Source: a virus
Direction: 5' to 3' (one strand)
DNA length: 64,000 nucleotides
Virus record (IMG/VR): IMGVR_UViG_3300036861_000330
Coordinates: 1 to 64,000 of that record
Shown here: one piece after another, positions 16,531 to 37,434 of the stretch
Layout: every line of letters starts with the position of its first letter
How positions within the stretch are numbered: position 1 is the stretch's first letter
Translations under genes and position numbers: made by a program
The notes under the pieces: model-generated
Told to the model about the DNA's origin: nothing
The model's input: only the letters and a program-made list of their open reading frames with translations
The model's database searches: none

Positions 16531-16809
16531 ATGGATGAACAAAATACGCAGCAACCACAGAAGCCGTACTTACGTGGCAGTGAGGTTGCGGCAGTGCTTG
16601 GCTGCACACCAGGGACGGTAGCAAGATACGCACAGCGGGGGACGCTTCCGTCCATTCGCACGCTAGGTGGGCATCGTCGGTATCCAACGAAATTTATTTA
16701 TCGAGTTCGTGATGAGCTTTCTAAAGACTATGCATTTCGTCGCACGCTTGATGAGGCACTACTTGCCCTTCGAGAAGAAGAATCCATTGCAAGAGTGGAG
16801 GAACTCTAG
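16531..16809 (+). CDS. BldC-like MerR/Xis helix-turn-helix regulator
   Basis: LRGSEVAAVLGCTPGTVARYAQRGTLPSIRTLGGHRRY matches the BldC signature SIRTLGGHRRY. Confidence 0.85.
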   Translation: MDEQNTQQPQKPYLRGSEVAAVLGCTPGTVARYAQRGTLPSIRTLGGHRRYPTKFIYRVRDELSKDYAFRRTLDEALLALREEESIARVEEL

Positions 16810-17097
16810 CCATATGGATTATATCACGATTGTTTGTACTGATGGTGACGGCGACGAAACGTTTAAACAACGGTTTCCGCTTGTTGGTGGAAATATTACC
16901 GTCCAGCTTGGCAAGATTCATTTCGTGAGCTTCTCCCGCATCGACGTGATCACGGAAATGGACGAATACAAGCCACAGCTCAGCTTTGATGAGGTTCCTG
17001 GGCGTTATCCAGGGAAAATGGCCCGTGATGATGTGACCGAGACTGGTAGCTGGGCGAGCGACCAAAAAACAAAAGACCTAGCCCGTAAGCAAGACAA

Positions 17098-17430
17098 ATG
17101 ACTCGGAAACTATTTGTGATGGTCGCGTTTGTACTCGTGTTAGTTGGGTGTGGGCCATCGGTTACTAGCGGCACTATTGTTAAAAAGACGTTCATTGCTG
17201 CACATTACGACGAATACACGACCTACTACTGCATGATGCGCAGTCAAACCGGTGGGTGTATGGTGCAAGTTCCTGAGAACCATCGGGACTTTGTGCCAGA
17301 TAACTGGCGGGTTGTATTGCGTGCGAACTGTGAGAAACCAGACCACAGGAAATGTCCTCAAGACTGGCATTCCGTCGATCATGCGACCTATGACCGGCTT
17401 GAAATTGGTTCACAATGGGAAGTACGGTAA
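17098..17430 (+). CDS. Putative lipoprotein
   Basis: Signal peptide with LVGC lipobox. Confidence 0.7.
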   Translation: MTRKLFVMVAFVLVLVGCGPSVTSGTIVKKTFIAAHYDEYTTYYCMMRSQTGGCMVQVPENHRDFVPDNWRVVLRANCEKPDHRKCPQDWHSVDHATYDRLEIGSQWEVR

Positions 17431-17641
17431 AACAAGGGGAAGCTGCGCCATACGTGAGCACGGCGCCTGAGTCAGGCACGAGAGTCTGATCCATGATCGG
17501 CGCCAAATGTAACAACTTGGTAACGACAGACAGTGGTGGCTATGTGGGAATGGACGTGGCGGGATCTGTGTTATAATGAGTAGAACACGGAGAACGGGAA
17601 GCCAGAAGGGGCTCCCGCCGCGTACAGAAAGGGACCAGGCC

Positions 17642-18034
17642 ATGACCCAAAACGCTTTTTGGGAAAACGCCACCGAACTGACCGAGGATGAGGTCGAAGA
17701 GATCAAGTCCGCGCCGGCCGGGACGCGCAGCTACAGCGAGAGCATGCTGAACGCCTTCCTTGAGAAGGGCACGCAGGGTGCGTGGCTGCCGGCCACCGCA
17801 CTTGGCACCACCAGCAAAGGCGCCGAGCGTGGCGCTGCAACCACCGCGCAGTTGCTCACCTCGTACGCTGAGTCGCACAACCTGCCCGTGAACGTGAAGC
17901 GTCACTACGAGAACGGCCTCGATGGTGTTGCGTTCTACCGGGTCGAGCGAGTCGGCGAGCCTGAGCCGCCAAAGCGTAGGGGCCGTCGCAAGAACGCTGA
18001 CGTTGTTGCCGAGGTCACGCCCGAAGTGGAGTAA
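17642..18034 (+). CDS. Hypothetical protein with its own promoter and terminator
   Basis: TGTGTTATAAT extended -10 at ~17567-17577, GAAAGGGA SD, hairpin at 18068-18092. Confidence 0.7.
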   Translation: MTQNAFWENATELTEDEVEEIKSAPAGTRSYSESMLNAFLEKGTQGAWLPATALGTTSKGAERGAATTAQLLTSYAESHNLPVNVKRHYENGLDGVAFYRVERVGEPEPPKRRGRRKNADVVAEVTPEVE

Positions 18035-18976
18035 CTGAACACAACAAACAAATAGGGAAAGAAATTCAGAAGGGCCGGATTTCCGGCCCTTCTCCCTATT
18101 GGAGCCTGTATTGAGAGATACCATCTTAGGGGTTATCTACCTCACAACTGCAATGGCAATTTTCTACACTGGCTGGTCAGAACGAAAGACTGCGTGGTTG
18201 CTTCGCAAAGCAGGAGTTCACCCACCAGCAATTTGGCCGACCTATCTGCTTCAGCTCGTTGCGACTGGTATCGCGATCGTGGCGGTTGGACTGCTCATCG
18301 ACAATGTAAAGAGATAATCGACATGCTTGCAGAAAAGTACATCGTTGTCCAAGACCTAACACTCTACTATGTCGCTGTCTGGGACCAGGGGCCTGAGATC
18401 TATAAGAGGTATATGACACTGCACGGACAACCATCACTTGACGAGGCGAAACAGATCGCGTCATTTCTCAATCTCAACGCCAAAGAAACTACAAAGGAAA
18501 CCGAAGAACGTGACTAAAAAGACAGTAGAACAGCTTAAGACAGAAGTTGAACAGCTTCTCGACAGCCTTCCGTCAACACCTGAAGCTATTGCCGAGTTTC
18601 TTGTGCGCGAAGGTGTTCAAGGGGTTAGGCGATCGCCTTATGACTGCCCCCTTATCAATTGGCTCAAGGCCAAGACCGAATACCCACTCCTTCGCGCCGA
18701 TGAGTTTGACGTTATGATCGAGTTTGGTGTGTACGTCAGCATACCAGAACGTGGTAGGGAGTTCATCCACCGGTTTGATGCGTTAGACGACAACTTTGCA
18801 CCAGAACTTGTTGCGTCTGTAACGAGCCCATAGAGCTACGAGTGCAGCACAGAAAAGGACGGGCTAGTGATACGGGCACCCTAACTAGATAACGATTTCC
18901 GTAAAACCCAAACGAATAAAAGGAAACTCTTTTGCCAACGTTTAGCACTCCTTCCGTAAGGACTAACCGAATGAGA

Positions 18977-19363
18977 ATGAACCCAGTAATGATTCGCCAG
19001 GGCGATGTCCTGCTCGTGCCAGCCAAACGGCAACCTGGCACACTCAAGGAAGTTAAGCACGACAATGGTAGTGTGGTGCTTGCTTATGGTGAGCAGACTG
19101 GCCACGCACACAAGATCAATGCCAACAGCGGCGTAGCACTGCTTGAGCGTAAACTCGTCGCGACAAGTGGCCAGCACACGGACCAGCGCTTTTTGCAGGT
19201 GCTCACTGAAGGTGGTGTCAAGCTCACCCACGAGGAGCATGCAGCGGTTACCGTGCCACCTGGTTTTTATGAAGTACGGATGCAGCGTGAGTACACGACT
19301 ACCGATCTCAGGGAACGCGGTGCGTTGAGGAGTCACACTCGGCCACGGTTCTTTGTTGACTAA
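18977..19363 (+). CDS. Conserved hypothetical protein (RQGDV family)
   Basis: MIRQGDVLLVP...LAYGEQTGHAH...THEEH...QREY. Confidence 0.75.
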   Translation: MNPVMIRQGDVLLVPAKRQPGTLKEVKHDNGSVVLAYGEQTGHAHKINANSGVALLERKLVATSGQHTDQRFLQVLTEGGVKLTHEEHAAVTVPPGFYEVRMQREYTTTDLRERGALRSHTRPRFFVD

Positions 19364-19372
19364 CAACGGACT

Positions 19373-19867
19373 GTGGACTCTTCTAGCAATTTTCTAGCAA
19401 TTTGGATTATTGTAGCAATTTGGATTATTCTAACAGTTTGTGTCTTCGTACATGTAGTTGTAGTCAACTTGCCTAATTTAGCAATTTGGGCCGTCCGGTC
19501 TATTTTCCTGCCACAACCATTCACAGTTGAGTGGCAACGTCATGGTCTGCTCTATCATGCGACGAGACAGCGAAGTGAAACCAGTCCAGCGAACGAACAA
19601 TATTTCCTCGATACAATGGGCGTTGGCCCGTATTTAGTAAAATATGGTTCACTGCATTACTCCGACTTGACTGGCCAGCTTTGGAGTTCCCGGCGATTTC
19701 CAGGTCGAAATGAACCAATCGTCGCCGTCCGTGTCATCGATACGACAACCAACGAAGTGCACTGGCTACGAGTTCCACCAGAGTTTCGACGAAACAGCCC
19801 ACGCGCTGCGGTTGCGTGGACATTTCGGATGGAACGGGGGGACTATTACCCAGCAGTCGAAGCATAA
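19373..19867 (+). CDS. DUF6745-like protein
   Basis: C-terminal HWLRVPP...AAVAWTF...YYPAVEA. Confidence 0.6.
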   Translation: MDSSSNFLAIWIIVAIWIILTVCVFVHVVVVNLPNLAIWAVRSIFLPQPFTVEWQRHGLLYHATRQRSETSPANEQYFLDTMGVGPYLVKYGSLHYSDLTGQLWSSRRFPGRNEPIVAVRVIDTTTNEVHWLRVPPEFRRNSPRAAVAWTFRMERGDYYPAVEA

Positions 19868-19927
19868 CAACAATGGCGTCTAGATATCGTACGAAAATCT
19901 TAGATAGTGTCGGCGCCTACTAGAAAT

Positions 19928-20000
19928 GCGCCAGTAGTTCAGTGGATAGAACGCCGCGCTACGGACGCGGAGGGCGGGGGTTCGAATCCCTCCTGGCGTA
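19928..20000 (+). tRNA. tRNA-Arg(ACG)
   Basis: Cloverleaf. Confidence 0.92.
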
Positions 20001-20135
20001 CGGTTGGGTAGGCTGTAAAAATGGGGCACACACTGTGTCACTACTATAGGCGCCTTGTGGAGCCACGAAAATCTATTGATGGGACGGCGCCTAACAGATA
20101 GTCGAGTATCTGAATGGATAGCGGCGCTCAGAACT

Positions 20136-20209
20136 GCGATCGTTGGTTAACGGATAAACCACCAGTCTTCTAAACTGGGCATATGTGGGTTCGAGTCCCA
20201 CCGATCGCA
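20136..20209 (+). tRNA. tRNA-Arg(TCT)
   Basis: Cloverleaf. Confidence 0.9.
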
Positions 20210-20412
20210 CGGTGCAACGGTGTTACTTGTCTGGTTGGCGCTCGTACAGGCCGTAATTTGCGATCTAGCACCGTTGCATCACCTGGCACAGGGAGAGGAC
20301 TTTCCGCGGCGCTTTCACAGGCCATACTACAAGTTGCACTCTCCCTGTGCCATCAACCTATCGGCGCCTATTACATGAGCGAAAATCTGCGATCTCCGCG
20401 GCGGCAACAATT

Positions 20413-20483
20413 GCGGTTGTAGGTTAACGGTAAACTATCTGTCTTCCAAACAGAAATTGCGGGTTCGATTCCCGCCAACCGTA
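20413..20483 (+). tRNA. tRNA-Gly(TCC)
   Basis: Cloverleaf. Confidence 0.9.
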
Positions 20484-20693
20484 CAATGGCCATACAAATA
20501 AATGGTGAACAGTGAGACCACTCACGATGACCACCATACTCTAATTCATGGCCAGATCCGAGTTTTTTGACGGCTCTGAGTTTACTCGGACATCAAATAA
20601 AACCATAGCCAAAGGTTTTCTTGTAATGGTTCCTTATAAACCCTTACACGGGTACTTTGGCAGTTTCTCCCGATACCAAGGAAACTGCCACTA

Positions 20694-20769
20694 CGGGGCG
20701 TCGTCTAGGTTGGCCTAAGACGCAGGGCTCATAATCCTGTCATCGTGGGTTCGAATCCCACCGCCCCCA
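20694..20769 (+). tRNA. tRNA-fMet(CAT)
   Basis: CAT anticodon, C1 mismatch, GGG in anticodon stem. Confidence 0.85.
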
Positions 20770-20847
20770 CGAAGGTAACGGATCGGTTGGTAATGAGGAG
20801 GTGGTAATAATGACACTATAGGTATTGCCTCACTGTAGGAGAACAGC

Positions 20848-21174
20848 ATGGCGCTCAAGGAAAAACGGCTTTATTATCTTCGCAAGTTCCTCAACCGCCC
20901 ACGCTACAGTGCTGGCGCGTTTATCATTGCTGAGGCGACTGAGCAACGCTGGGAGCACAAGACAAAGCGAGGACAGCGAGAAGAAAAAACACTACAAGTT
21001 GTCCTCGAAATCGCAGACTGTTACCATCACGTCAACCTGGAAATCGACACTAGTACGGTGCGAGAACGGACGAACGGCCTTCACAAGCTCGATGTTCTGA
21101 TAGAAACACTTACTGCACTTAGAAGTGCAGTAGAAAAGTGGTGCGTCGAGAACCCAACAAAAACTCGGCAATAA
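20848..21174 (+). CDS. Hypothetical protein
   Basis: AGGAG SD, 108 aa. Confidence 0.75.
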   Translation: MALKEKRLYYLRKFLNRPRYSAGAFIIAEATEQRWEHKTKRGQREEKTLQVVLEIADCYHHVNLEIDTSTVRERTNGLHKLDVLIETLTALRSAVEKWCVENPTKTRQ

Positions 21175-21180
21175 GTTTAT

Positions 21181-21259
21181 GGTGATCGTAGCTCAGTCTG
21201 GTTTAGAGCGCCTGGTTGTGATCCAGGAGGTCGGGGGTTCGAGTCCCCTCGGTCACCCA
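21181..21259 (+). tRNA. tRNA-His(GTG)
   Basis: Cloverleaf with G-1 and encoded CCA. Confidence 0.93.
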
Positions 21260-21308
21260 GTACCTCTTATAAGCAAGAAGAGCTACTTACAGAACTTCGT
21301 ATATGCAT

Positions 21309-21381
21309 GCCCACCTAGCTCAGTTGGCAGAGCAGTGTCTTCGTAATGCACAGGTCGTCGGTTCGATTCCGACGGTGGGCT
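21309..21381 (+). tRNA. tRNA-Thr(CGT)
   Basis: Cloverleaf. Confidence 0.9.
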
Positions 21382-21432
21382 CATGGCGCCTATCGGAGTT
21401 ACGAAAATCTGTAGGCATGTCGGCGCCAAAAC

Positions 21433-21504
21433 GGGCGTGTAGCTTAGCGGAAAAGCGCTTCGTTCACACCGAAGAGATCGCAGGTTCGAGTCCTGCCATG
21501 CCCA
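21433..21504 (+). tRNA. tRNA-Val(CAC)
   Basis: Cloverleaf. Confidence 0.92.
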
Positions 21505-21763
21505 CGAGGGGGAGAAATGCCAGAGCCGTACAAAATCCTTGGCGTCCCGAAGGAAGAGTGGGATCGAAAGGTAGCCGAGGCAGAAGCACGTGGCACCACT
21601 ACGTGTATAAATTGTGGCCATAAGCAGTACCGACGCCCACACCCCTGGCACTGCGGACTATGCTGGGTTTTGCAAACTGATTGTAGAGAATAACAAGCAA
21701 GGCCCCACGGGACACGGCGCCTATTACTGGAACTAAAAGATATACCCGCTGCGGCGCTGTACT

Positions 21764-21837
21764 GCCCACATAGCTCAATTGGTTAGAGCACCAGTTTTGT
21801 AAACTGGTGGTTGCGGGTTCGATTCCTGCTGTGGGCT
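21764..21837 (+). tRNA. tRNA-Thr(TGT)
   Basis: Cloverleaf. Confidence 0.92.
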
Positions 21838-21893
21838 CGAAGAATAATGGCGCCTGTTACGCTACGAATATCTAAGTCAAGTCGGCGTCAAAT

Positions 21894-21980
21894 GGCGGGT
21901 TGGCAGAGCGGACTATTGCACCTGTTTTGAAAACAGGCAGAGCCTAAAAACTCACGTGGGTTCAAATCCTACACCCGCCG
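21894..21980 (+). tRNA. tRNA-Ser(TGA)
   Basis: Cloverleaf with long variable arm. Confidence 0.9.
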
Positions 21981-22057
21981 CGAGGAGAGTGATGGGAACA
22001 CAGTGCATACGGCGCCTAAAGGTTAACGGGTGCTTCGTGGATTCGGCGCTGTGCAAA

Positions 22058-22129
22058 GGGCAATTAGCTCAGAGGTAGAGCGCTTCCTCGACACGGAAGA
22101 GGTCGAAGGTTCAAGTCCTTCATTGCCCA
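22058..22129 (+). tRNA. tRNA-Val(GAC)
   Basis: Cloverleaf. Confidence 0.92.
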
Positions 22130-22217
22130 CGACGGCGCCTATAACTTGCCCGAGACGCTGTACAAACGGCGGCGCCTACGCCAGCCACGGAAATCTATGG
22201 TAGAACCGGCGCCAAGT

Positions 22218-22306
22218 GGCGAGTTGGCAGAGTCAGGTCGATTGCGTCCGCCTGCTAAGCGGATAGAGTTTAATCGCTCTCGTGGGTTCAAATCCCGCAC
22301 TCGCCG
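22218..22306 (+). tRNA. tRNA-Ser(GCT)
   Basis: Cloverleaf with long variable arm. Confidence 0.9.
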
Positions 22307-22317
22307 CAAAAGTGCAA

Positions 22318-22390
22318 TGGCATGTGGGGTAATTTGGTAGCCCGCAAGGTTCTGGTCCTTGTCGTCTAGGTTCGAGTCCTAGCGTGCCAG
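22318..22390 (+). tRNA. tRNA-Gln(CTG)
   Basis: Cloverleaf. Confidence 0.9.
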
Positions 22391-22655
22391 CAAAAGGAAA
22401 GGAGTTGACGGATGAGCAGTGACAGTACACAGTACCAACAGTCATTTCCAGAGTGCTGGACGGTCTTTGACAAGCGAACGGATCGCCGTTGTACAAACGT
22501 TTCCTTTCCATCCAAAGAACTCGCGGACCAGCAAATCGCGCAGTGGGTCGAGCGAGATAAGCGAGGGAAGCGACAGGACGTGCACGATCTCATTCCACAC
22601 ATGGAAGCACGACGGGTTTGGTAACCGAGAAGGGTACTGCGAAAGTGACTGACTG

Positions 22656-22727
22656 TGGCGATTAGTGTAACAGGCAGCACACGAGGTTTTGGTCCTCGTA
22701 GTCTGAGTTCGAATCTTAGATCGCCAG
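22656..22727 (+). tRNA. tRNA-Gln(TTG)
   Basis: Cloverleaf. Confidence 0.9.
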
Positions 22728-22738
22728 CGAACTGAAAC

Positions 22739-22811
22739 GGCCGCGTAGCTCAGGGGAAAGAGCATCTGGTTCCGAACCAGAAGGTCGCAGGTTCGATTCC
22801 TGTCGCGGTCG
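22739..22811 (+). tRNA. tRNA-Arg(CCG)
   Basis: Cloverleaf. Confidence 0.9.
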
Positions 22812-22821
22812 CACAAAAAGT

Positions 22822-23136
22822 GGCGCCTATAAGATGGCGAAAGTCTACGAGAACGACGGCGCCAAGAAATGCCCGTGTAGCTCAACTGGAAGAGCTGTGC
22901 CCTCTTAAGGCAACGGTTGCAGGTTCAAGTCCTGTCACGGGTACAACGGCGCCTACGAGTCGTTGGAAGCTATAGTTTAGCGGCGCCTATAGAAAGAGCG
23001 AATATCTAGGATTGAACCGGCGCCTAATTGATGCCCGAAAATCTCTACACAGGAGCGGCGCCTATCAGGTACACGAAAATCTGAACGACTTGCGGCGCCT
23101 GTAGTTGCACCGAAAATCTGTATCGCACGCGGCGCC
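22822..23136 (+). repeat. TIGR-like arrays (22822-22863, 1 unit; 22947-23136, 5 units)
   Basis: CGGCGCCT and CGAAAATCT alternate with ~37-nt period between tRNAs. Confidence 0.9.
22871..22943 (+). tRNA. tRNA-Lys(CTT)
   Basis: Cloverleaf. Confidence 0.9.
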
Positions 23137-23142
23137 AGTATT

Positions 23143-23218
23143 GCCCGTGTAGCTCAACTGGCAGAGCCCCTGACTTTTAATCAGGATGTTGCAGGTTCGA
23201 TTCCTGTCACGGGTACCA
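23143..23218 (+). tRNA. tRNA-Lys(TTT)
   Basis: Cloverleaf with CCA. Confidence 0.92.
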
Positions 23219-23276
23219 AGAATTGGAGTAACCATACGAAGGTTGTTAGCTTTACGAAAGTAGTAAACATGAGTAA

Positions 23277-23350
23277 GCGGGTGTGCGCAAACTGGCAAAG
23301 CGGCTTGTCTTAGGAACAAGTGTATGAGAGTTCGACTCTCTCCACCCGTA
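23277..23350 (+). tRNA. tRNA-Leu(TAG)
   Basis: Cloverleaf, short variable arm. Confidence 0.85.
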
Positions 23351-23405
23351 CAGGGTAAGGAACCAACACCGAAAAGGAACACGTACACAAAGGAAACTGA
23401 TTCAA

Positions 23406-23903
23406 TTGTCCCAGCATGATATTGCATTCACAGTTGACATTGCAGGCTCCTCAGCGGAGTATGTGCAGTTGACTACCCACCGCGAGTTCTACGATAACGA
23501 AGAGATGTGGGTCGAGACTGTCAACGGTCGCGTCCGCAAAGCCGAAATTGACAAGGCAAAGCAGAAGGCAAAAGCCAAGAGTCGAGTTCGCTACGACGAG
23601 TACGGCGGCTTGGTTGACGACAATGACGACGACCTCCGCGCACAGGTCGAGGAACTGATCGCAGAGAAGCGGAAGAGCAAGACCGCCGAGCAGAACCCTG
23701 CTGCGCTTGAACACAAGGCCACCATTCGGATGCCAGTTGCCGACGCGGTTGGGTTCCAGACGGGCCGCTGGTACCGGCTCCGGTTTGAGCCAGTTGACGA
23801 GGGTGTAAGCCTTCGCAGCTTCTTTACGCAAGACCAGCGTGAAACGGCCGCTGTTGAGCGTAACCAGGAATCGTCCAGGCAGCAAGCAGCTCCAACCAAG
23901 TAA
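23406..23903 (+). CDS. Hypothetical protein
   Basis: 165 aa, AAGGA SD. Confidence 0.7.
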   Translation: MSQHDIAFTVDIAGSSAEYVQLTTHREFYDNEEMWVETVNGRVRKAEIDKAKQKAKAKSRVRYDEYGGLVDDNDDDLRAQVEELIAEKRKSKTAEQNPAALEHKATIRMPVADAVGFQTGRWYRLRFEPVDEGVSLRSFFTQDQRETAAVERNQESSRQQAAPTK

Positions 23904-23915
23904 CAAGCCACGCAG

Positions 23916-23974
23916 TAGCAAACGGCGTCTAAACTCAAGCCGAGAATCTTATACTTTGGCGGCGCCGTTTGCTA
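23916..23974 (+). repeat. Single TIGR-like unit enclosed by a stem
   Basis: TAGCAAACGGCGTC...GGCGCCGTTTGCTA. Confidence 0.8.
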
Positions 23975-24025
23975 TCCTTACCCTTGCGTGCGCAGTAAAA
24001 ACTTAGAAGGAGGAAACCAAAAGAA

Positions 24026-24421
24026 ATGAACTATGAGCATCTGATCATCCGCGTGCCACATATTAACACCGAATATGCATATGAAGAAGGTGAGAAATTC
24101 GATATCACTAAGGGTGGTATAGTTAAACACCACGCGGAGGTGGTTGCGAAAGGCAAACTAGCTGAACGCGCGTACCGTCTAGCAAAGGATGGCCGTTCAT
24201 CCGGAGCACCATTTATGCAAAGTACAACACTTGGAGAAATCCCTGGTGAGTCAGCTCGCCGCTCGATGATTCGTTTTCGGAAAAGCACAACATATGGAGG
24301 AATCCCTGGCGTTATTGGAACGCTCCATCCAGGCGATGAGGTAATCGTCAGCGTTTCACGGACTGGGTATACATACAAGGCGGTTGTCGAGACCGTGTTC
24401 GAGCCGTACCTGCCAAAGTAG
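24026..24421 (+). CDS. Hypothetical protein
   Basis: AGGAGG SD, 131 aa. Confidence 0.7.
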   Translation: MNYEHLIIRVPHINTEYAYEEGEKFDITKGGIVKHHAEVVAKGKLAERAYRLAKDGRSSGAPFMQSTTLGEIPGESARRSMIRFRKSTTYGGIPGVIGTLHPGDEVIVSVSRTGYTYKAVVETVFEPYLPK

Positions 24422-24423
24422 CA

Positions 24424-24726
24424 AGCGCCTTTCGAAACGGCGAAAAGCTAAGAACCTGTCGGCGCCTGTACATGACACGAACATCTGCTGTGGAAGCGGC
24501 GCCTGGATGAGGAACGAAAATCTATTGATCCTACGGCGCCTATGATAACGGCGAGAGTCTATTGATCCGACGGCGCCTATGATACCGGCGAGAAGCTGAA
24601 ATGCCCCCGGCGCCTACTATGAAGGCGAAAGTCTAGTACCTCCCCGGCGTCTGTCGAGCGGGCGAAAAGCTAATAACTGACCGGCGCCTAGGGCAGCATC
24701 GAATGTCTAAAGCTCGACGCGGCGCT
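24424..24726 (+). repeat. TIGR-like array, 8 units
   Basis: CGGCGCC at 24497, 24534, 24571, 24608 (exact 37-nt period). Confidence 0.95.
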
Positions 24727-24731
24727 GAGTT

Positions 24732-24804
24732 GCGGGCGTAGCTCAATTGGCAGAGCACTGCGTTGCCAACGCAGAGGTTACGGGTTCGAGCCCCGTTGTC
24801 CGCT
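24732..24804 (+). tRNA. tRNA-Gly(GCC)
   Basis: Cloverleaf. Confidence 0.92.
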
Positions 24805-24821
24805 CGGTGCATTTGTATAGT

Positions 24822-24938
24822 GGCGCTTGTCGTACTCCCGAAAAGCTGTTCGGAAAACGGCGCCTACGTTCAAGGCGAAAGCTGTGACATCATCGGCGCC
24901 TCTGTTCCCTGCGAAAAGCTATATAATGCACGGCGCCT
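24822..24938 (+). repeat. TIGR-like array, 3 units
   Basis: Same consensus. Confidence 0.9.
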
Positions 24939-24969
24939 TCATACAGGACGAGTAGCTAAGGAGTGACCG

Positions 24970-25152
24970 GTGCTTACTCCGCGTGACCCAAACAGGATTC
25001 CAGCAATACTAGAAATGTTGAAGCAAGTCTGGACACGGTACCCAGACTGGCGGCTGGGGCAACTCATTGAAAACCTTGATATCTCGTTTTTCACCGAGGA
25101 TGACGAGGCACTTCGTAAGCTGCACGAATACGAGTTTGATACTGGCCTCTGA
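24970..25152 (+). CDS. Small phage protein (YihD/DUF1040-like)
   Basis: RDPNRIPAILEMLKQVWTRYPDWRLGQLI. Confidence 0.7.
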   Translation: MLTPRDPNRIPAILEMLKQVWTRYPDWRLGQLIENLDISFFTEDDEALRKLHEYEFDTGL

Positions 25153-25155
25153 AAT

Positions 25156-25346
25156 GGCGCCTAACGCCGCTTCGAATAACTATGAACTAGACGGCGCCTA
25201 AAGAGCTAGCGAAAAACTGAGTGCAGGTCGGCGCCTGTATCAACAGCGAAAGTCTGTGCAGATCTCGGCGCCTATAGGTTTAACGAAAATCTGTGCGGAT
25301 CTCGGCGCCTGTGACATGAGCGAAAAACTGAATGCAGCTCGGCGCC
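25156..25346 (+). repeat. TIGR-like array, 5 units
   Basis: Same consensus, ends 4 nt before tRNA-Ile. Confidence 0.92.
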
Positions 25347-25350
25347 AAAG

Positions 25351-25426
25351 GGGCTTGTAGCTCAGTCAGGTTATGAGCGCTGCTCTGATAAAGCAGAGGT
25401 CGATGGTTCAAATCCATCCAAGCCCA
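25351..25426 (+). tRNA. tRNA-Ile(GAT)
   Basis: Cloverleaf. Confidence 0.92.
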
Positions 25427-25468
25427 CTTAGTGGGAGTCGATTACAAGAAAATGGAAAGGAAGAAGAG

Positions 25469-25939
25469 ATGACAATGCTGTCAGAAGCGCTAACACGGCG
25501 CGGCGACTTGATGAAAAAGCTTGTTGATCTTCGTGACCGTACAACTGCAAACGCACGGTTCCAGGAGGGAAGCGAGGCACAGGAAGACCCGAAAAAGCTG
25601 ATGGAGCAGTGGCTTACGGCAGCAAATGAACTAGCCGAACTCATTGCACGGATCAACCTGACGAACTCAGCGACACCGTTTGACGACGTTAATACGTTAA
25701 CCAACGTACTGGCAAAGCGAGAAGCACTTGGCCGAAGTCGAAAGTTTTACACTGAGCTTGCCGACGCAGCCTCAGGACGTGGCAAGCGTGTACTATGGCG
25801 CTACAGCAAGGACGAGATCCGTACACTGACCACGCTTGACGTGCCAGAGCTACGGCGACTGTCTGACGACACGGCCGCTGAGTACCGTAAGCTTGACCAG
25901 CAAATTCAGCGGCTCAACTTCACGACAGAACTTTTGTAA
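25469..25939 (+). CDS. DIP1984-family coiled-coil protein
   Basis: MLSEALTRRGDL...QEG..AQEDP...IARINLTN...QIQRLNFTTEL. Confidence 0.8.
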   Translation: MTMLSEALTRRGDLMKKLVDLRDRTTANARFQEGSEAQEDPKKLMEQWLTAANELAELIARINLTNSATPFDDVNTLTNVLAKREALGRSRKFYTELADAASGRGKRVLWRYSKDEIRTLTTLDVPELRRLSDDTAAEYRKLDQQIQRLNFTTELL

Positions 25940-26016
25940 GAACTCGACGGGAGTCTACGGCCACTCGTGAGAGCCCGTTAGGAGGGCGCCCACGACGACT
26001 CCCGTCGAGTACAACG

Positions 26017-26255
26017 CCAAGGTAGTTGGTAGCCAAAACAAACAAGAGCGAGTGCAACAGTGACTCCTTGTCACCAGGCTTGAAACCTGGCCACTGTGTG
26101 CGTTGGAGCCGTACGTACTTGCAAATGCGTTTACAGGGCACCGAGCAGCTCCATCGTACCGAGTACATACGCGGATGTGTCCAACTGTTCACCGCGCACG
26201 ACCACTGCACTGACTTGTGAATTTTGGTGAGGGTGGGACAGGGGACCACCTTGGC
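26017..26255 (+). ncRNA. Candidate structured RNA downstream of the DIP1984-family gene
   Basis: Closed by GCCAAGGT/ACCTTGGC; internal hairpins; no credible ORF. Confidence 0.5.
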
Positions 26256-26352
26256 AGTAGTAGAAATGGCGTCTAGTTAGCTTACGAAAATCTGTTATAG
26301 ATGCGGCGCCTATTGCGGGAACGAAAATCTGTACGTGCGTCGGCGCCATAAC

Positions 26353-26425
26353 GGAACCGTAGCTCAGTCGGCAGAGCACCTGGCTGAAAACTAGGGGGTC
26401 GCCCGTTCAATCCGGGCCGGTTCCA
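26353..26425 (+). tRNA. tRNA-Phe(GAA)
   Basis: Cloverleaf. Confidence 0.9.
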
Positions 26426-26427
26426 TT

Positions 26428-26501
26428 GGGGGCATAGCTCAATTTGGAAGAGCATCTGCTTTGCATGCAGAAGGTTTGGGGTTCGAGTCCCCATGTCTCC
26501 A
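26428..26501 (+). tRNA. tRNA-Ala(TGC)
   Basis: Cloverleaf with G3:U70. Confidence 0.92.
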
Positions 26502-26507
26502 CATTAT

Positions 26508-26581
26508 GGGGCGTATTTCACTGGTTGTGGAAGCGAGGCTTATATCCCCGTTAGAGCAGAGTTCGATCCTCTGGCGCCCTA
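26508..26581 (+). tRNA. tRNA-Ile(TAT), atypical
   Basis: Good acceptor and T arms, CTTATAT loop, weak D arm and one anticodon-stem mismatch. Confidence 0.6.
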
Positions 26582-26645
26582 CAATTATCATGTGAACCAA
26601 TTCACAAAGTAAATTTTCACGTTTTTGGGAAATTTTGAGTTTTGC

Positions 26646-26718
26646 GGTCCCGTCGTCTAGCGGCCTAGGATTGAACTCCTTCAAAGTTCGGACGCCGGTT
26701 CGAATCCGGTCGGGACTA
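26646..26718 (+). tRNA. tRNA-Glu(TTC)
   Basis: Cloverleaf. Confidence 0.88.
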
Positions 26719-26769
26719 CAAATGGCGCCTGTAGCTGCCACGAAAATCTATCCGAGATTCGGCGCCAAT

Positions 26770-26844
26770 GGCCAGATGAAGGGAATTGGCATACCTGGAA
26801 TACTTAAAATATTCCGCTTGTGGGTTCGAGTCCCACTCTGGCCA
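26770..26844 (+). tRNA. tRNA-Leu(TAA)
   Basis: Cloverleaf, short variable arm. Confidence 0.85.
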
Positions 26845-26853
26845 CCTACGTAA

Positions 26854-26928
26854 GGCCAAGTGACGGGAACTGGTATACCTCGAATACTCAAAATATTCGG
26901 TTTGTGGGTTCGAATCCCACCTTGGCTA
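26854..26928 (+). tRNA. tRNA-Leu(CAA)
   Basis: Cloverleaf, paralogue of the preceding tRNA. Confidence 0.85.
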
Positions 26929-26979
26929 CGACGGCGCCTAGTACCCATGGCGAAAATCTATGATTGCGCCGGCGCCAGT

Positions 26980-27054
26980 GGCTCCATCGTTCAGTCAGGT
27001 CTAGGACGCCAGATTGTCAATCTGGTAACGCGGGTTCGAATCCCGTTGGAGCCG
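26980..27054 (+). tRNA. tRNA-Asp(GTC)
   Basis: Cloverleaf. Confidence 0.92.
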
Positions 27055-27180
27055 CAAGTGGCGCCTATGGATGAACTGCAACGCTAATGGCCGAGCGGCG
27101 CCTGTTCCATGGTCGAAAATCTATTGGTCAGACGGCGCCTGTTACACAGTCGAAAATCTATTGGCCTGACGGCGCCAACT

Positions 27181-27251
27181 GCCCCCATCGTTTATTGGTA
27201 GGATCGTAGGTTCTCAACCTACAGAAGTGGGTTCAATTCCCACTGGGGGCA
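27181..27251 (+). tRNA. tRNA-Glu(CTC)
   Basis: Cloverleaf. Confidence 0.88.
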
Positions 27252-27652
27252 CGAAAGGAGGGAACCATAATGATGTCTGATATCAGTATCGTCTTAGATG
27301 AACGGATGACATGGAAAGAGCGAGAAGAACTCGCACAACAGGTCTTTGAACTAGTCAATAGCAAGTGGAGTGAACGGTACTCCAACTCAGTTTATGGTCC
27401 ATGGCCTGGGGAGTTTGATGAATATCGATTTAAGGTTAGGGAGACGTAATGTGGGTTCGTGTTGAAGAAGACGATCGTATGAAAACCATCTATCTTGATG
27501 TCGCAGCGAAAGCTGGTAGCCTTGAAAACTATATTCACATGCCAAGAGAGTTATACGATGAGTGGCGCGGTGCACAGGACGCGCTTGAGCGCGTAGAGAG
27601 TAAGATCCGTTTATTCGTAGCAGATCAGGACGGAGTTATTCATTAGTGGTAT

Positions 27653-27735
27653 GCGTTAGCGCCGAAGTTGGAGAGTCGGGCCTGTCTGTAACACAGGTGC
27701 CACTGGCTGAGCTGGTTCGAATCCAGTCTAACGCA
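27653..27735 (+). tRNA. tRNA-Tyr(GTA)
   Basis: Cloverleaf with variable arm. Confidence 0.88.
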
Positions 27736-27759
27736 CTGTCGAACAATTGGAGGGAGCAC

Positions 27760-28140
27760 GTGGCAAGTCATACGTACAAGGACGAACCATCAGGCGATGA
27801 GTTCCAGTTTCACTACCCTGATGACTTTGGCGGTGACATTCTTGTCACGATACCGTCACCACGGCTTAAGGAAGATACTCCGTCAACAACGGTGACAGTG
27901 CGAATTCCAGCAGCGGCCCTGATTGATCTCGTGACCGGACATTTTCGCTCACGAGTTGTCGAAGACATCTATAGTATGGATAACAAGGAGTTTATTGGAT
28001 GGCTCCTCTCGACGGAGCGACACACGACTGCGGACAGCAATGGGGGTTTAACCCAGCGCTCTGCCCATGTACAACTAAACAAGCCGACTACTACTCGTTC
28101 AAAGACACCCATGAAACGAAAACGCTCGCCGACAAGCTGA
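27760..28140 (+). CDS. Hypothetical protein
   Basis: GGAGGGAG SD then GTG; the longer ORF call overlaps tRNA-Tyr. Confidence 0.65.
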   Translation: MASHTYKDEPSGDEFQFHYPDDFGGDILVTIPSPRLKEDTPSTTVTVRIPAAALIDLVTGHFRSRVVEDIYSMDNKEFIGWLLSTERHTTADSNGGLTQRSAHVQLNKPTTTRSKTPMKRKRSPTS

Positions 28141-28795
28141 GCACAAGCGTTGGCATCTTTCGAGGATCACTATGAAGATCCGAATCCCACACAAGCCAGA
28201 CTGGGAGTTTATCGGCTGGCGAACAGACCGTGAACCACCACGCAGAGTCATTCGCTGCAAGAAATGCCCCAAAATCATTGCACTTCGTGACCCATTTGCT
28301 AGACCACCAAGGAGAAGACACTAACGTGGGCGCACGGTTTACTCTCAGACGAGAGTGTTTCAGAATCAAAGCACCAGTTGCACTTCCTGACGAAGAAGGC
28401 GAAGTTCTCAGCGCCGAAGTCGGTGATCTCGTTGCAACGCTCAGGCTCAATCTTGAACTCGAACTCAAGACGCTTTACCCAGAGCTTACACTCGAGTGGG
28501 AGGCATAATGCACCAGCCAGAAGACGAATGGAGCGACCGGTTTGAATACTTGCTCTACCGAGACTGGTACTCGTGGCGGCGAATCTTCAACAAATACTGG
28601 TGGAAGGGCCAAAAACGAGCCTTCTACCAGCGTCTCAAGCGGCTCCGTCCAAAGCCCCACAGGGGCTAGGCTGCACCTCATATACTCCGCCCCGATGCTC
28701 ATATACACCCTCTGTGGGCTCGACTGCCGGTGCCTCAAACCGTGTCCGACTTGTGACGATTGACCGAGAGGAGCGTTCTCGCCGAAGGGAGTCAA

Positions 28796-29203
28796 ATGGC
28801 AGAATCGGCCATGTATATGCATTGCCTGAGAGTCTATAAGGCAATGGAGAGTGAGTCCGTCACGATTGACGGTGAGCAAATTTACAAAGGTCACTTGTCG
28901 GTGATGATGCGAGATCAGTTGGGATTACCAACGCCATACTACTCGTTCATTAAAAATACACTTGAGCATGATCTTCACTGTATTGAACAGCAAAAGCGTG
29001 GTGGAGGTACAGCACTTTCTGAATGGCGCCTGCTCATACCACCTGACCGACTTCTATTTGAGCAAATTGATCCAGACAAGCGACCAGCAAAAAGCGGTAA
29101 CACACAAATGCTTCTGCAATCGGTTGCGTCGCTCTCTGCAAGAGTGCTCGAACTAGAACGTCAGGTTATGCTGCTTACGAAGCAGCAAAAGAAAGTAGGG
29201 TAG
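28796..29203 (+). CDS. Hypothetical protein
   Basis: GGGAG SD, 135 aa. Confidence 0.7.
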   Translation: MAESAMYMHCLRVYKAMESESVTIDGEQIYKGHLSVMMRDQLGLPTPYYSFIKNTLEHDLHCIEQQKRGGGTALSEWRLLIPPDRLLFEQIDPDKRPAKSGNTQMLLQSVASLSARVLELERQVMLLTKQQKKVG

Positions 29204-29227
29204 GCGCCCTTCAAAAAGGACTGTCTG

Positions 29228-29551
29228 TTGGCGACAACTGACTGGGAAACGGCAAGTCACTGCCCACGTTGTGGCGAGTCAGGTCGAAAAGTTGGCACTC
29301 GTCGTGTTGTGATGCGAATTGGGTCAACAGCACATATTTTGATGTGCGAAAATAAGCAGTGCAGGTGGTTTGGAACAACCTGGATTGTGCAGGTTGACAA
29401 AGACGGTTCGATTCCTATCAGGGAGCAAGGTGCAAAGCAGTTTCCCAAGCTCCCAGAGATTAGTGAAGAAAAGTTCCAAGAACAGCTCGACCGACAGCTT
29501 AAGCTAGAGACCAAGGCAGGCGCAGAGATACGAAACCAATTAGCAAACTGA
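29228..29551 (+). CDS. Zn-ribbon hypothetical protein
   Basis: CPRC...CENKQC. Confidence 0.7.
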   Translation: MATTDWETASHCPRCGESGRKVGTRRVVMRIGSTAHILMCENKQCRWFGTTWIVQVDKDGSIPIREQGAKQFPKLPEISEEKFQEQLDRQLKLETKAGAEIRNQLAN

Positions 29552-30787
29552 ACTCGGGTGGAAGACTATGGACTATAGAGTTGAGACGGACTATGGGGTC
29601 TTCGTTATTCGAGTAGATGCAAGTGGAGTCGTTTATGCCGCGGCACCGATTGCAAAATGGACAGTTGGCAAGTACTGGCCAGACGTGCAGAAGTATTATA
29701 AGCAACTAGGTGCGTGTACGGTACTCGATATCACGGAGGGCTAAGTGGCTGGACAGTCAAAGGAAAAGGGTTCCAAGTCTGGCCGCAAGCGGAGGAAGCC
29801 GTGCCAGCAACGCTACGTCGCAAATAACCAGAGGAGCAAGAACAAGCTGCGACGTGTCATGAGGTGTAATGGCGAGACCTTCGCGATCCAGTGGCAACAA
29901 CGGTACTATGTGCAAGGTGACCGGCCAGCACTACAAAAGAAACAGACGTTACCAAAGATTAAGGAGAAGGCGAAACGAAAGTGACTACCGTTCAAGAAGA
30001 CAAGACCATTACTGAAGTGAACAGTGAAATTCAAGACTACGTAAGTAAGCATGGGATCGGGCTCGACAATGTCCTGCTTCGACTGCTTGCAGAGCTTGAT
30101 CATGCAGTGCAGAGTAGCCAATGATCGGAACCTTTCTCTGGGTCGTTCTAGTAATCGTTGTCGTGATAGTTATACTTATATCATGGGCTGGCGCGGGGGT
30201 ACTGCTTCTTGAGAAGGACGAAGTAAAACGTGGCGTTGCACTTTTGTTGTTTGCGTTGCTGTTCACTGCACTCGTCATTGCACTCGCAGTTCACAACATC
30301 TCATTTGACACTGATCGTCCTGTCTGTGGCTACGACGAAGGCAAGTACAGCCGCACACCTGTTCATTGCGACTACCCACTGGAATCGCATTTCGGGTATC
30401 AAACGTGAACCGGTTCACAAGGTGCATTTCCTCGTTTTTTGGGAACTGAACGAAGGGGGTGGCATTGCGTTCGACTGGTAGATTGCAGGACGCCTTGTGG
30501 GACCTACTAATCGGTCACACCGCAGGTGACGGGACATTTTTTGAAGGCAAACTTGCAGAGCTTCCGTGGGAACGGACCAGTACCGTTATCAATGACATCG
30601 TTGATGTTGTACTCCTCAACTACCCAGAGCTTGCAGACTGCGAAGCACGGCTCGAAGCTGAGCGGAAAAACAGTGATGCTCGTGTTGACAACTTGCTTGC
30701 AAAGGTTCGAGACCAGCAACATGAACTTCAACGGTTAAATACGACGGTTGGGTCACTTCGAGCAGCGAACCGACACACTCCGAAGAG

Positions 30788-32290
30788 GTGATGCCAGTTA
30801 CAATCTCACTATGGGGTTTCCAACGCGAAGACGTGGAAAAGCTTCGACAACAAACCGGAGCACTACTCCTGAACGACATGGGAACCGGGAAAACTGTGGA
30901 GGCGGTCGAACGTGACCGCCTCCTCCGCCTTGACCGACCAAGTTTTGACAAACCGCTAACCCTTGTGGTTACGAAGATGGTTATTACTGAGCACTGGGAA
31001 CGTCACTTCAATTTGATGACACCAGACCTCAACATAAGCGTGTTTCGCAATGACAAGGATCGCGACGAGTTTTACGACGCACTTAAAAACCACACACATG
31101 ATGTGTATGTGCTGTACTGGCAGTGTCTTCGCAAGCCACCAGTAAGCGAACATGCTCGCTCGACATGGGCGCAGCGTGTGCTTGTACCACTGCTACTCAA
31201 GACGCAATGGTTCCACATCATTGCCGACGAGGCCCACAGGGCATCAAACCGGAAGTCGCAGCAGGCGTATGTACTGAAGCGGCTGAAGACACGATTCAAA
31301 ACCGCCGTAACTGGGACACCATTTGATAAACCACCACAGATGTGGTCAGTGCTCAACTGGTTATACCCCAAATCATACCGAAGTTTTTGGAAGTTTTTCG
31401 AGTCCTATGTCCAGTATACGGTTGTTCCACCGCTGAACTATAAGCAAATTATCGGCGTTAAGAACACTGAGGAACTTCGAAATGGCTACAACTCGTTTAC
31501 CGTTAGAAGACGAAAGCGAGATGTCCTTAAAGACTTACCAGACCGCTACTACACATCAGTGGTTGTGGACCTGGACCCGAAGCAGCGACGGGCATATAAC
31601 GCTATGCGTGACAGTCTTGTTGCCTGGATCGGTGAACGGGAAGATGAGATTTTGGTGGCAAGCGCCATCATCGCCCAGCTTCAACGATTGCAGCAGTTTG
31701 CTATCGCGCACGCTGAAATTGCAAAAAGCGGCGCGCTGGATCTTAGAGAGCCGTCTTCTAAGTTAGATGCGGTACAAGACATTTTGGAGGACGCACCTGG
31801 TGAGCAATTCGTCATCTTCAGTCAGTTTCGTGGAGCAGTCAGACTTTTGGAAACTCGTCTCCGAGGATTCGGAGAAAGCTTTAGTACTCTTACCGGCGAT
31901 ACTCCGAATCATGTACGAGGATCTGTCGTCGGTGATTTCCAAGCTGGACGTGTGCGTATCTTCGCCGGCACTATTGGAGCAGGCGGCGAAGGAATTGATC
32001 TCTTCGCATCGAACAAGGTTATCTTTCTTGATCGGAGCTGGTCACCCGCTGACAACGATCAAGCGGAATCTCGACTCCATCGTGCCGGACAGCGCAGTGC
32101 CGTCCAAGTAATTCACATCATGGCTCGTGACACGATTGATGCTGTAAAAGCTGAGAAGATCCAAATGAAGGCGAAGTGGTTCAAACAAATGCTGGGGGAT
32201 GATCGCAAGCTTATACAAACAGATATAAAAGCAATGCAACAAGACGCCGTGCAGACAGCACTCGACATTTTTGGAGTGGAAGGACCATGA
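30788..32290 (+). CDS. SNF2-family DNA helicase/ATPase
   Basis: DMGTGKT, DEAH, VTGTP, GGEGIDL, QAESRLHRAGQ. Confidence 0.93.
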   Translation: MMPVTISLWGFQREDVEKLRQQTGALLLNDMGTGKTVEAVERDRLLRLDRPSFDKPLTLVVTKMVITEHWERHFNLMTPDLNISVFRNDKDRDEFYDALKNHTHDVYVLYWQCLRKPPVSEHARSTWAQRVLVPLLLKTQWFHIIADEAHRASNRKSQQAYVLKRLKTRFKTAVTGTPFDKPPQMWSVLNWLYPKSYRSFWKFFESYVQYTVVPPLNYKQIIGVKNTEELRNGYNSFTVRRRKRDVLKDLPDRYYTSVVVDLDPKQRRAYNAMRDSLVAWIGEREDEILVASAIIAQLQRLQQFAIAHAEIAKSGALDLREPSSKLDAVQDILEDAPGEQFVIFSQFRGAVRLLETRLRGFGESFSTLTGDTPNHVRGSVVGDFQAGRVRIFAGTIGAGGEGIDLFASNKVIFLDRSWSPADNDQAESRLHRAGQRSAVQVIHIMARDTIDAVKAEKIQMKAKWFKQMLGDDRKLIQTDIKAMQQDAVQTALDIFGVEGP

Positions 32291-32751
32291 TTCGAAAGCA
32301 AGATAGACCATCGGTGTCAACTGGAAAGCGCCTAGACAACGCAAAAAAGTCACGAGAAGTTATTGAGAAGCTACTGAGCGATCCAGATGTTGATGTTCGT
32401 GACGATGGCACAGTGTGGAAGCGTGTTGTCAGTCACGATAACAAGATGACATATAAAACCAAGTCGGTAACTATAGCACGACTCATTCTTCTTAAGTATA
32501 CTGGCGTGCTGGTCGATGATCTGCCAGTGTCATTCAAAGACAACGACCCAACAAACTTGCGCCCCGACAACCTCTATCAGGGTCCAGCGTACTCGAAAGG
32601 AACACGCCGGCTTGGACAGTTGACATTCGGAGAGCTGACGGAGATCAGGGAGACCGACGACGGGACAGACGAGTCAAGACTACGTCTTGCCTACAGGTAC
32701 GGCGTGGCCACCAATGAAATCGACAAGATCCGTGAGCTAAAGATCAGCTAA
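32287..32751 (+). CDS. Degenerate HNH-like protein
   Basis: VSFKDNDPTNLRPDNL. Confidence 0.55.
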   Translation: MIRKQDRPSVSTGKRLDNAKKSREVIEKLLSDPDVDVRDDGTVWKRVVSHDNKMTYKTKSVTIARLILLKYTGVLVDDLPVSFKDNDPTNLRPDNLYQGPAYSKGTRRLGQLTFGELTEIRETDDGTDESRLRLAYRYGVATNEIDKIRELKIS

Positions 32752-32763
32752 CGAAAGGGTTAC

Positions 32764-33726: not shown

Positions 33727-34052
33727 AGGCAGTTGCCTTTTGGTGTGGGTACGCTGTCGTGTCAGTAAACACGACAGCGTATCTCACTGCCAAAATGGGA
33801 ATGCGAGAAGACTAATGAGCAACGACTGCGAGGGAAAGCGTCGCTACTTATCAAAAGCCACCGCCGAACGAGGTGCTGGGCAGCTTGGCTCACTCTCACT
33901 GATGGCCTACGAGCACGATGACCACTGGCATATCGGCCATCCGGGCAAACGGTCACGCACGGCGCGACGCAAGGCGCGACGCAAGCGGAAGGGTAGCCAG
34001 TCGCAATACCGAAGTGGCCCAGACTGGACTCCAACAATCGGAGATGTAAGCG

Positions 34053-37426: not shown

Positions 37427-37434
37427 ACAGGAGT

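Follow-up and report, generated by a model that had tools for sequence, protein, structure and literature searches.

The short repeats at positions 24,424 to 24,727 of a phage in the IMG/VR collection raise two questions: whether they form a TIGR array, and whether the letters at their ends amount to a guide code of their own, as a first-pass annotation had proposed. The window analysed here is a stretch of 64,000 nt, the first 64 kb of the 103,156-bp IMG/VR virus record IMGVR_UViG_3300036861_000330; the phage has a G+C content of 51%. In the terms of Faure et al. (PMC12045711), box D denotes the letters opening each repeat and box C the letters closing it, which are UG and CCA for TaTasR. TIGR-TasA systems, first described in 2025, are CRISPR-like and bind DNA under the direction of guide RNAs. 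The phage carries a real TIGR-TasA system, and its guides display a rare box C variant, found so far in one TasA lineage and one orphan contig (L079). The variant is a modest departure from the published range of TIGR systems. The 37-nt unit very probably represents a two-spacer tigRNA for the nuclease-free TasA of the phage, with CG as box D and CU, followed by a preferred purine, as box C.

Anatomy of the focal array

Each unit of the focal array (Table 1) is composed of an 8-nt edge repeat, a variable stretch, a loop repeat (CG, five letters and CU) and a second variable stretch. The degenerate first edge, AAGCGCCU, lies 3 nt 3' of the stop codon of the ORF at 24026-24421. It is followed by six edges of the CGGCGCCU type, one of which reads CGGCGUCU, and by a degenerate last edge, CGGCGCUG, which occupies positions 24720-24727 and ends 4 nt 5' of the tRNA-Gly(GCC) gene. 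The interiors of the loop repeats are AAAAG, AACAT, AAAAT, AGAGT, AGAAG, AAAGT, AAAAG and AATGT, and thus include every one of the loop variants listed in the first-pass annotation (AAAAG, AGAGT, AACAT and AATGT). Its description of repeats with a 37-nt period, both carrying invariant CG...CT(R) ends around a varying loop interior, is borne out by this reading and by the logo of all units given below.

Adjacent units contain near-identical spacers in a staggered arrangement at 24497-24615, as well as at 25229-25310, 27096-27177, 42971-43045 and 63237-63318. In the focal array, the units starting at 24497 and 24534 have spacer B in common (AUUGAUCC), and the units starting at 24534 and 24571 have spacer A in common, 1 base apart. 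The staggered sharing points to arrays that grew by tandem duplication out of step with the unit boundary and diverged afterwards.

Table 1. Positions of the arrays, of tasA and of the tRNA gene next to the focal array (window coordinates unless stated otherwise)
Feature	Position	Strand	Description
Focal TIGR array	24424..24727	+	8 units, 37-nt period, two-repeat; internal edges CGGCGCCU, loops CG-N5-CU
tRNA-Gly(GCC)	24732..24805	+	4 nt beyond the last edge of the focal array
Next array	24821..24975	+	about 4 units; begins 15 nt past tRNA-Gly; degenerate first edge UGGCGCUU
Arrays, 29 of the 31 in the record	15012..63837	+	1 to 10 units each
Three arrays	41999..43235	+	3, 4 and 10 units; directly upstream of tasA; 164-aa ORF 42347-42841 between the second and third
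tasA	43282..44064	+	260-codon frame from ATG 43282; called product P0002, 245 aa; nuclease-free, Nop/IS110-C-type
Two arrays	44817..45464	+	1 and 8 units; on the 3' side of tasA, beyond a weak vWA-like ORF 44138-44776
Two small arrays of the focal-type unit	93805-93923, 100184-100228 of the record		past the end of the window

Arrays across the phage genome

Chaining of edge-like 8-mers at a spacing of 34-40 nt yields 31 arrays with 91 edge-to-edge units in the 103-kb record, all on the + strand. The unit length is exactly 37 nt in 68 of the 91 units; 86 fit the succession of an edge, 9-11 nt, CG-N(4-5)-CT and 9-11 nt, with the canonical 10/5/10 spacing in 65. Across the 68 units of 37 nt, the edge logo reads C55/T12, G68, G68, C68, G68, C59/T9, C68, T66 and then A41/G17, and the loop logo C66, G68, A54, A54, A51, A52, T54, C66, T68 and then A36/G27. 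The loop interior is A-rich, variable in sequence and 4-5 nt in length, with a 4-nt interior in three units. A purine follows the CT in 58 of the 68 edges (85%) and 63 of the 68 loops (93%), against a background of 53% (p 3e-8 for the edge and 2e-12 for the loop), so that the third letter of box C displays a purine bias only, of 0.5-0.7 bits.

The edges are 8-9 nt long, the loops 9-10 nt, and the spacers 9 nt past the purine, as in the dual-repeat arrays of Faure et al. 2025, which alternate two short repeats of 8-12 nt with spacers of about 9 nt in units of about 36 nt. The letters of both boxes are near-invariant and common to edge and loop, with a similar purine bias in the two, which is again the pattern of TIGR dual repeats. 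Stem-loop TIGR arrays are defined by linkers and a variable palindromic stem of at least 5 bp; the phage units have a fixed 8-mer edge, whose GGCGCC gives 3 pairs per processed unit, and no linkers. The twelve box letters set in a 37-nt frame give 38 matches on the window's + strand and none on its - strand, and 100 dinucleotide-preserving shuffles produced a mean of 0.01 matches and a maximum of 1. The spacer pairs have no match in the rest of the phage genome when up to 1 mismatch of 18 is allowed, whichever of four strand arrangements is tried and with gaps of 0-8 nt; re-paired spacers, used as a control, gave 0-2 hits per run.

A nuclease-free TasA between the largest arrays

The largest arrays flank tasA, and most of the remaining arrays are far from it. 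The tasA ORF spans 43234-44064, with the start most likely at 43282. Pfam returned no match for TasA, nuclease domains included, and the Nop model PF01798 matches nothing in the 103-kb record; Pfam is insensitive to the TasA family, and its silence is therefore no counter-evidence. A phmmer comparison with TaTasR (PDB 9MTY) gave an E value of 9e-6 over two colinear stretches. Homologues are few: 151 were found among 5.8 billion proteins, none exceeding 51% identity, the phage's own protein aside. A family profile built from 30 homologues retrieved 9MTY (E 1.6e-17) and the TasH structures (E 4.7e-14) from the PDB. The AlphaFold model built on the alignment of this profile reached a pLDDT of 86.8 and a pTM of 0.79, and its ten best Foldseek matches in the PDB are 9MTY and the TasH structures, with TM 0.54-0.62 (9MTY at E 7e-7 and TM 0.61, TasH at TM 0.54-0.61), followed by IS110-type recombinases. 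As the alignment with TaTasR opens at TaTasR residue 119, past the RuvC domain, the phage TasA is nuclease-free, carrying neither HNH nor RuvC.

The position of a gene with Tas homology and fold between the largest arrays identifies the repeats as a TIGR array sensu Faure et al. 2025. It also bears on the idea that the units encode no guide RNA and belong to a phage intergenic repeat family, a regulatory or structural DNA such as protein-binding GGCGCC palindromes, that merely resembles a TIGR array. We consider this highly improbable: the scatter of the units over 31 sites, in place of one or two arrays, and the lack of spacer matches elsewhere in the phage genome would suit such a family, but the exact two-repeat, two-spacer anatomy with 9-nt variable parts, the strict one-strandedness of the units, the Tas-fold protein flanked by the largest arrays and the like-planned arrays that TasA relatives have beside their genes all argue for guides.

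Since TasA has no nuclease, its complex likely binds DNA without cutting, in repression or interference. DNA binding without cleavage is the likely outcome by analogy as well, repressor activity having been shown for TasA and dead TasR.

A ParB_N-domain ORF lies at 46653-47711, 2.6 kb downstream of tasA; ParB-like genes are operonised with some tasA genes (Faure et al., PMC12045711). Within this ORF, 87 nt (47145-47231) share 95% identity with L079:11296-11382.

Published box codes and the nearest known systems

The first-pass annotation took CCA and UG as the reference motifs of tigRNAs, which fits TaTasR and ParTasR only; AG/CCA, AG/CCN, CG/CCA and UG/CUU are also published. The supplement of Faure et al. 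(PMC12045711) gives AG/CCN for FpTasA and AG/CCA for SpTasH, in agreement with the arrays printed in its Table S1. The PlTasA unit in the same table parses, in our reading, as stem, CCA, 9 nt, CG, 4 letters, CCA, 9 nt, CG and stem, that is, as CG/CCA. Xu et al. 2026 (bioRxiv 10.64898/2026.09.09.750476) assign PateTasR a box D of UG and a box C of CUU. In the same paper, the stem-loop branch of TIGRFinder allows box C to be CCA, CGA, CTA or CAA and box D to be TG or CG, and the program accepts repeat interiors of 4-5 nt with spacers of 8-10 nt.

The code of the phage, CG with CU and a purine, equals none of the characterised pairs UG/CCA, AG/CCA, AG/CCN, CG/CCA and UG/CUU. CG and CTA each occur in the TIGRFinder stem-loop sets. 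Every separate element is within the published range, including CG, a CU-initial box C, a 5-nt interior and a weak third letter. The principle of shared but divergent boxes is likewise published already, as Faure et al. state that boxes may diverge yet covary between edge and loop (PMC12045711). The combination of CG with CU-purine in a compact dual-repeat array does not occur in the texts and supplements searched, nor do the edge core CGGCGCC and five TasA peptides in the supplement text of Faure et al.; both negatives carry little weight, as they extend to a part of Table S1.

The phage system resembles several characterised systems in different respects. PlTasA, from a Peromyscus leucopus gut contig with a stem-loop TIGR (PMC12045711, bioRxiv 10.64898/2026.08.11.744272), is also nuclease-free, with CG as box D and 9-nt spacers, and its C-terminal motif aligns with that of the phage protein residue for residue (W295, R306); both proteins are without the Tyr/His processing loop. 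However, the box C of PlTasA is CCA with a strictly conserved A, against CU and a purine in the phage, and its units have long variable closing stems and linkers, whereas the fixed 8-nt edge of the phage gives only 3 bp. In addition, K310, H292 and H299 of PlTasA are all replaced by Arg in the phage TasA.

TaTasR, the best sequence and fold match of the phage TasA (9MTY), and ParTasR share with the phage the alternation of edge and loop repeats and the 9-nt spacers (Faure et al. 2025). By analogy, the phage repeats would also form the G-C pair between box D and box C, the extra edge pair and the A-rich loop of these systems. Their arrays differ in the UG/CCA code, a period of 36 nt and a loop interior of 4 nt, and their proteins in an N-terminal RuvC nuclease and a C-terminal loop bearing W/Y-x6-H. 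SpTasH, which is phage-borne, and FpTasA, which is nuclease-free, belong to dual-repeat systems like that of the phage (Faure et al. 2025; PMC13421893), and FpTIGR demonstrates that the third letter of box C may be unconserved, comparable with the purine bias seen here. Unlike the phage, these systems have AG as box D and a box C that keeps CC, and both proteins carry the edge-cutting Tyr/His dyad (Y289 and H296 in SpTasH) that the phage TasA is without. PateTasR has a box C that opens with CU, as in the phage, namely CUU; its box D is UG, its RuvC domain is dead, and its tigRNA is a 54-nt stem-loop.

Relatives of the phage TasA

We collected relatives from 78 IMG/VR loci and 14 species-genome loci, the latter mostly of Actinomycetota, and examined the boxes of 86 of these loci (72 viral and 14 genomic) by counting, in each locus, all box D/box C pairs that border two consecutive 9-nt spacers. 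The top pair on the tas strand is CG/CCA in about 40 of the 72 viral loci and in the typeable genomic loci. The CG/CCA loci include the closest relatives (L001-L005, L007 and L011-L017); AG/CCA was found instead in L019, L021 and L023. The same typing returned 40 counts of CG/CTA and 14 of CG/CTG for the window, and a CT-type box C in none of the loci of relatives. Direct reading of individual arrays revealed CG and CCA throughout, with a period of 35 nt in L001, 34 nt in L003 and 37 nt in L020, and as a 54-nt stem-loop in L017. Like the phage studied here, L001, L003 (a 133-kb phage) and L020 combine a protein of the TasA family, at 30-46% identity, with CG as box D, short fixed repeats and 9-nt spacers; L020 even has the 37-nt period and one 5-nt interior. 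They differ in that all have CCA as box C and the Lys of the VGK motif. CG/CCA, and not UG/CCA as the general code, is thus the norm in this TasA family.

In a quick IQ-TREE maximum-likelihood tree, the window TasA is a long terminal branch (1.1 changes per site) nested in a 32-row clade (SH-aLRT 97), the remainder of which is CG/CCA. The tree does not sustain the "distinct clade" of the first-pass annotation, placing the protein as one long branch within the CG/CCA clade; because a single branch is nested among CG/CCA relatives, the CU is a derived state of one lineage, with no separate Tas clade. The annotation had presented the CUR/CG boxes as distinctive. This can be kept for the CU(R) box C, which is absent from the typed relatives, but not for the CG box D, which is the norm in the TasA family and is published for PlTasA. 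The variant is accordingly derived from CG/CCA by C to U at box C position 2, A to purine at position 3 and a loop interior of 5 nt in place of 4.

One other IMG/VR contig, L079, contains focal-type repeats. It is a 12-kb fragment with three arrays, alike in edge and loop design and ending in CGGCGCCA; the fragment has no tas gene and almost nothing else in common with this phage. The other candidates from pattern scans were discarded. L080 and L081, from the IMG/VR scan for the edge-loop-edge pattern, are chance matches in coding sequence, and L202, the only match of the loop-anchored IMG/VR scan, proved to be a tandem repeat in giant-virus coding sequence and no array. The metagenome pattern scan for the unit revealed no real array among the 80 loci listed, the scan of species genomes gave no match, and a megablast search of positions 23000-27500 against GenBank phages found none either.

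The genomic relatives (L203-L216) come mostly from Actinomycetota, among them Acidimicrobiales, Nocardioides, Streptomyces, Mycobacterium, Parafrankia, Tsukamurella and Nocardia, which hints at the host range of the TasA family. In L005 (10001-10900), the tas frame runs 80 codons into an array with a 42-nt period, corresponding to the intragenic guide units of Xu et al. 2026.

Register of the boxes

In the proposed register, box D would be the CG that opens each repeat, directly 3' of a 9-nt spacer, and box C the CU that closes it together with the preferred purine, immediately 5' to the following spacer. Solved structures suggest by analogy that the G of CG and the C of CU would pair across each repeat, closing an A-rich pentaloop in the loop repeat, and in the edge repeat the GGCGCC palindrome would add two further G-C pairs between the 5' and 3' ends of the processed unit. 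A symmetric TasA dimer would be expected to read both C/D modules alike, which may explain how the ends stay identical in the two repeats even as the loop interior changes. The letter preceding the CU of the loop is never C (T63, G17, A6 of 86), so that the G-C closing pair is held in one register.

The boxes might also be placed one letter upstream, with a box C of YCU, read as CCU in the edge and UCU in the loop and homologous to CCA, interiors of 3 and 4 nt, and 10-nt spacers with a purine-biased first base. Exactly these interior lengths are present in L001, whose edge reads CG-CUG-CCA and whose loop reads CG-UAAC-CCA, and the loop would become an AAAA tetraloop, comparable with the A-rich tetraloop of TaTasR (PMC12045711). 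However, the first letter of such a box would be C in the edge and never C in the loop, breaking the symmetry expected of a symmetric dimer; it is G or A in 23 of the 86 loops and forms no pair there with the G of box D; and the three short loops delete a letter of the interior while keeping the CU. The CG...CU register, on the other hand, provides identical box positions in both repeats and a C of CU that can always pair with the G of CG. The YCU placement appears unlikely on these grounds, and we retain CG and CU with a purine as the boxes.

Residues aligned with the box C contacts of PlTasA

In the cryo-EM structure of PlTasA (bioRxiv 10.64898/2026.08.11.744272), R306 and K310 contact bases of box C, the adenine of which is stacked against H292, W295 and H299. 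[quoted passage not shown] The VGR/VGK position of the phage family was aligned to K310, and the register was checked against H292, W295, H299 and R306 in the Table S1 sequence of PlTasA. The motif of the TasA family is W-x3-H-x-H-x3-L-R-x2-G-K, and the window TasA reads W-T-D-A-R-K-H-N-A-A-L-R-R-V-G-R at this site. The equivalent of K310 is thus Arg in the window TasA (VGR); it is Lys (VGK) in 118 of 120 database homologues, as well as in all 71 IMG/VR and all 12 genomic translations in which the motif was found. The sole other homologue with Arg in this motif among the 120, P0110, has no copy or relative that could be found in IMG/VR.

The box C variant coincides with the Arg that replaces this near-invariant Lys, and the two may be linked: on alignment grounds the Lys-to-Arg replacement is a specificity candidate for the C-to-U switch in box C, within a single lineage. 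The equivalent of H299 is Arg in the window TasA as well, and also in seven other homologues, L003/P0035 included. This replacement was considered as a sufficient cause of the relaxed third box letter and rejected: L003/P0035 has the same Arg and keeps CCA in its arrays, so that the change from H299 to Arg cannot by itself explain the variant.

Terminal edges, tRNA neighbourhood and guide processing

The first and last edges of the arrays deviate from the internal ones in opposite ways. Where an edge follows a spacer, its first position is always C (91 of 91), compared with T15/C14/A2 in the 31 first edges; where an edge precedes a spacer, its eighth position is T in 89 of 91 cases, compared with A15/T10/G3/C3 in the 31 last edges. 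As terminal edges lose these letters, the first letter of box D (C) and the second of box C (U) are kept only beside a spacer, as expected of a box function. The pattern fits the dual-repeat arrays of Faure et al. 2025, in which the first edge is truncated at its 5' end and the last edge at its 3' end (PMC12045711). The published arrays are followed by a terminator, whereas many of the phage arrays run into a tRNA. First edges tend towards UGGCGCCU and last edges towards CGGCGCCA, for example in the arrays at 21384-21428, 26723-26767 and 63512-63556. The two ends of an array could pair over 7 bp, through U-A and the GGCGCC palindrome, a U-A pair that internal edges cannot add.

The window contains 37 tRNA genes. 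Of its 29 arrays, 12 start at most 60 nt downstream of a tRNA and 16 finish at most 60 nt upstream of one; where an array ends in CGGCGCCA, a tRNA begins 2-6 nt later in 11 of 14 cases. In the dual-repeat arrays of Faure et al. 2025, the transcript is cut within the edge repeat to give Tas-bound tigRNAs of about 36 nt. SpTasH cuts edge repeats via Y289 and H296, both carried by a C-terminal loop of about 27 residues (PMC13421893), and the Tyr/His dyad is described as conserved in dual-repeat systems and absent from stem-loop clades by Xu et al. 2026 (bioRxiv 10.64898/2026.09.09.750476). The window TasA has a tail of 37 residues past the last Nop helix that contains no His and hence no such dyad. 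A [YW]-x6-H in the tail is present in only 4 of 73 members of the TasA family, most tails being 4-18 residues long. The protein thus places the system with the stem-loop TasA group, and the RNA is a compact dual-repeat array with three possible closing pairs. Guide maturation probably needs host enzymes, acting at a predicted processing site to give a predicted mature length, and this would fit the placement of the arrays between tRNA genes.

The TasA being without the dyad, part of the repeat conservation could serve a host RNase and not TasA. In its full form, this explanation holds that the repeat ends are no TasA code and act chiefly as cutting sites for a host RNase, whose preferences the variant letters would track, or for tRNA-processing enzymes. 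It draws on the His-free tail, in a system whose dual-repeat counterparts are reported to conserve a dyad of the Y289/H296 type, and on the tRNAs that directly follow the arrays ending in CGGCGCCA. Yet the letters are equally conserved in the loop repeat, which is uncut in any characterised system (PMC12045711), the terminal-edge pattern links the letters to the adjoining spacer and not to a cut site, and their positions are those of the protein-contacted boxes in solved Tas structures. A mere cleavage signal is very unlikely in view of these observations, and we continue to regard the repeat ends as boxes read by TasA.

Orthogonality of the phage system to other Tas proteins is plausible, but the distinct and orthogonal clade of the first-pass annotation outruns the evidence. 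As a tentative possibility, CG/CU-purine and the Lys-to-Arg replacement might constitute a private recognition pair, in which TasA would load only its own guides, about 90 in number, leaving aside the CG/CCA guides of any related phages or prophages that share its host, and the Tas proteins of these relatives would likewise not accept the guides of this phage. Such a pair would be a natural orthogonal pair that emerged from one base change and one residue change. With no dyad, host enzymes would mature the guides, and tRNA-processing cuts would mark where many arrays begin or end. If the exchange of one letter in box C and the Lys-to-Arg replacement do switch specificity, they would represent a minimal natural example of the re-coding of Tas-guide recognition and would supply an existing orthogonal pair with which two TIGR systems could be used in a single cell.

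Arrays are wedged among tRNA genes at 19874-27252 and 62980-63950 of the window. A comparable neighbourhood is seen in L003 (IMGVR_UViG_3300021408_000001, 133 kb), where, within 9189-9440, the tRNA-Tyr gene at 9189-9272 is directly followed by an array, CG/CCA with a 34-nt period, and four tRNAs lie within 5 kb of the tas gene.
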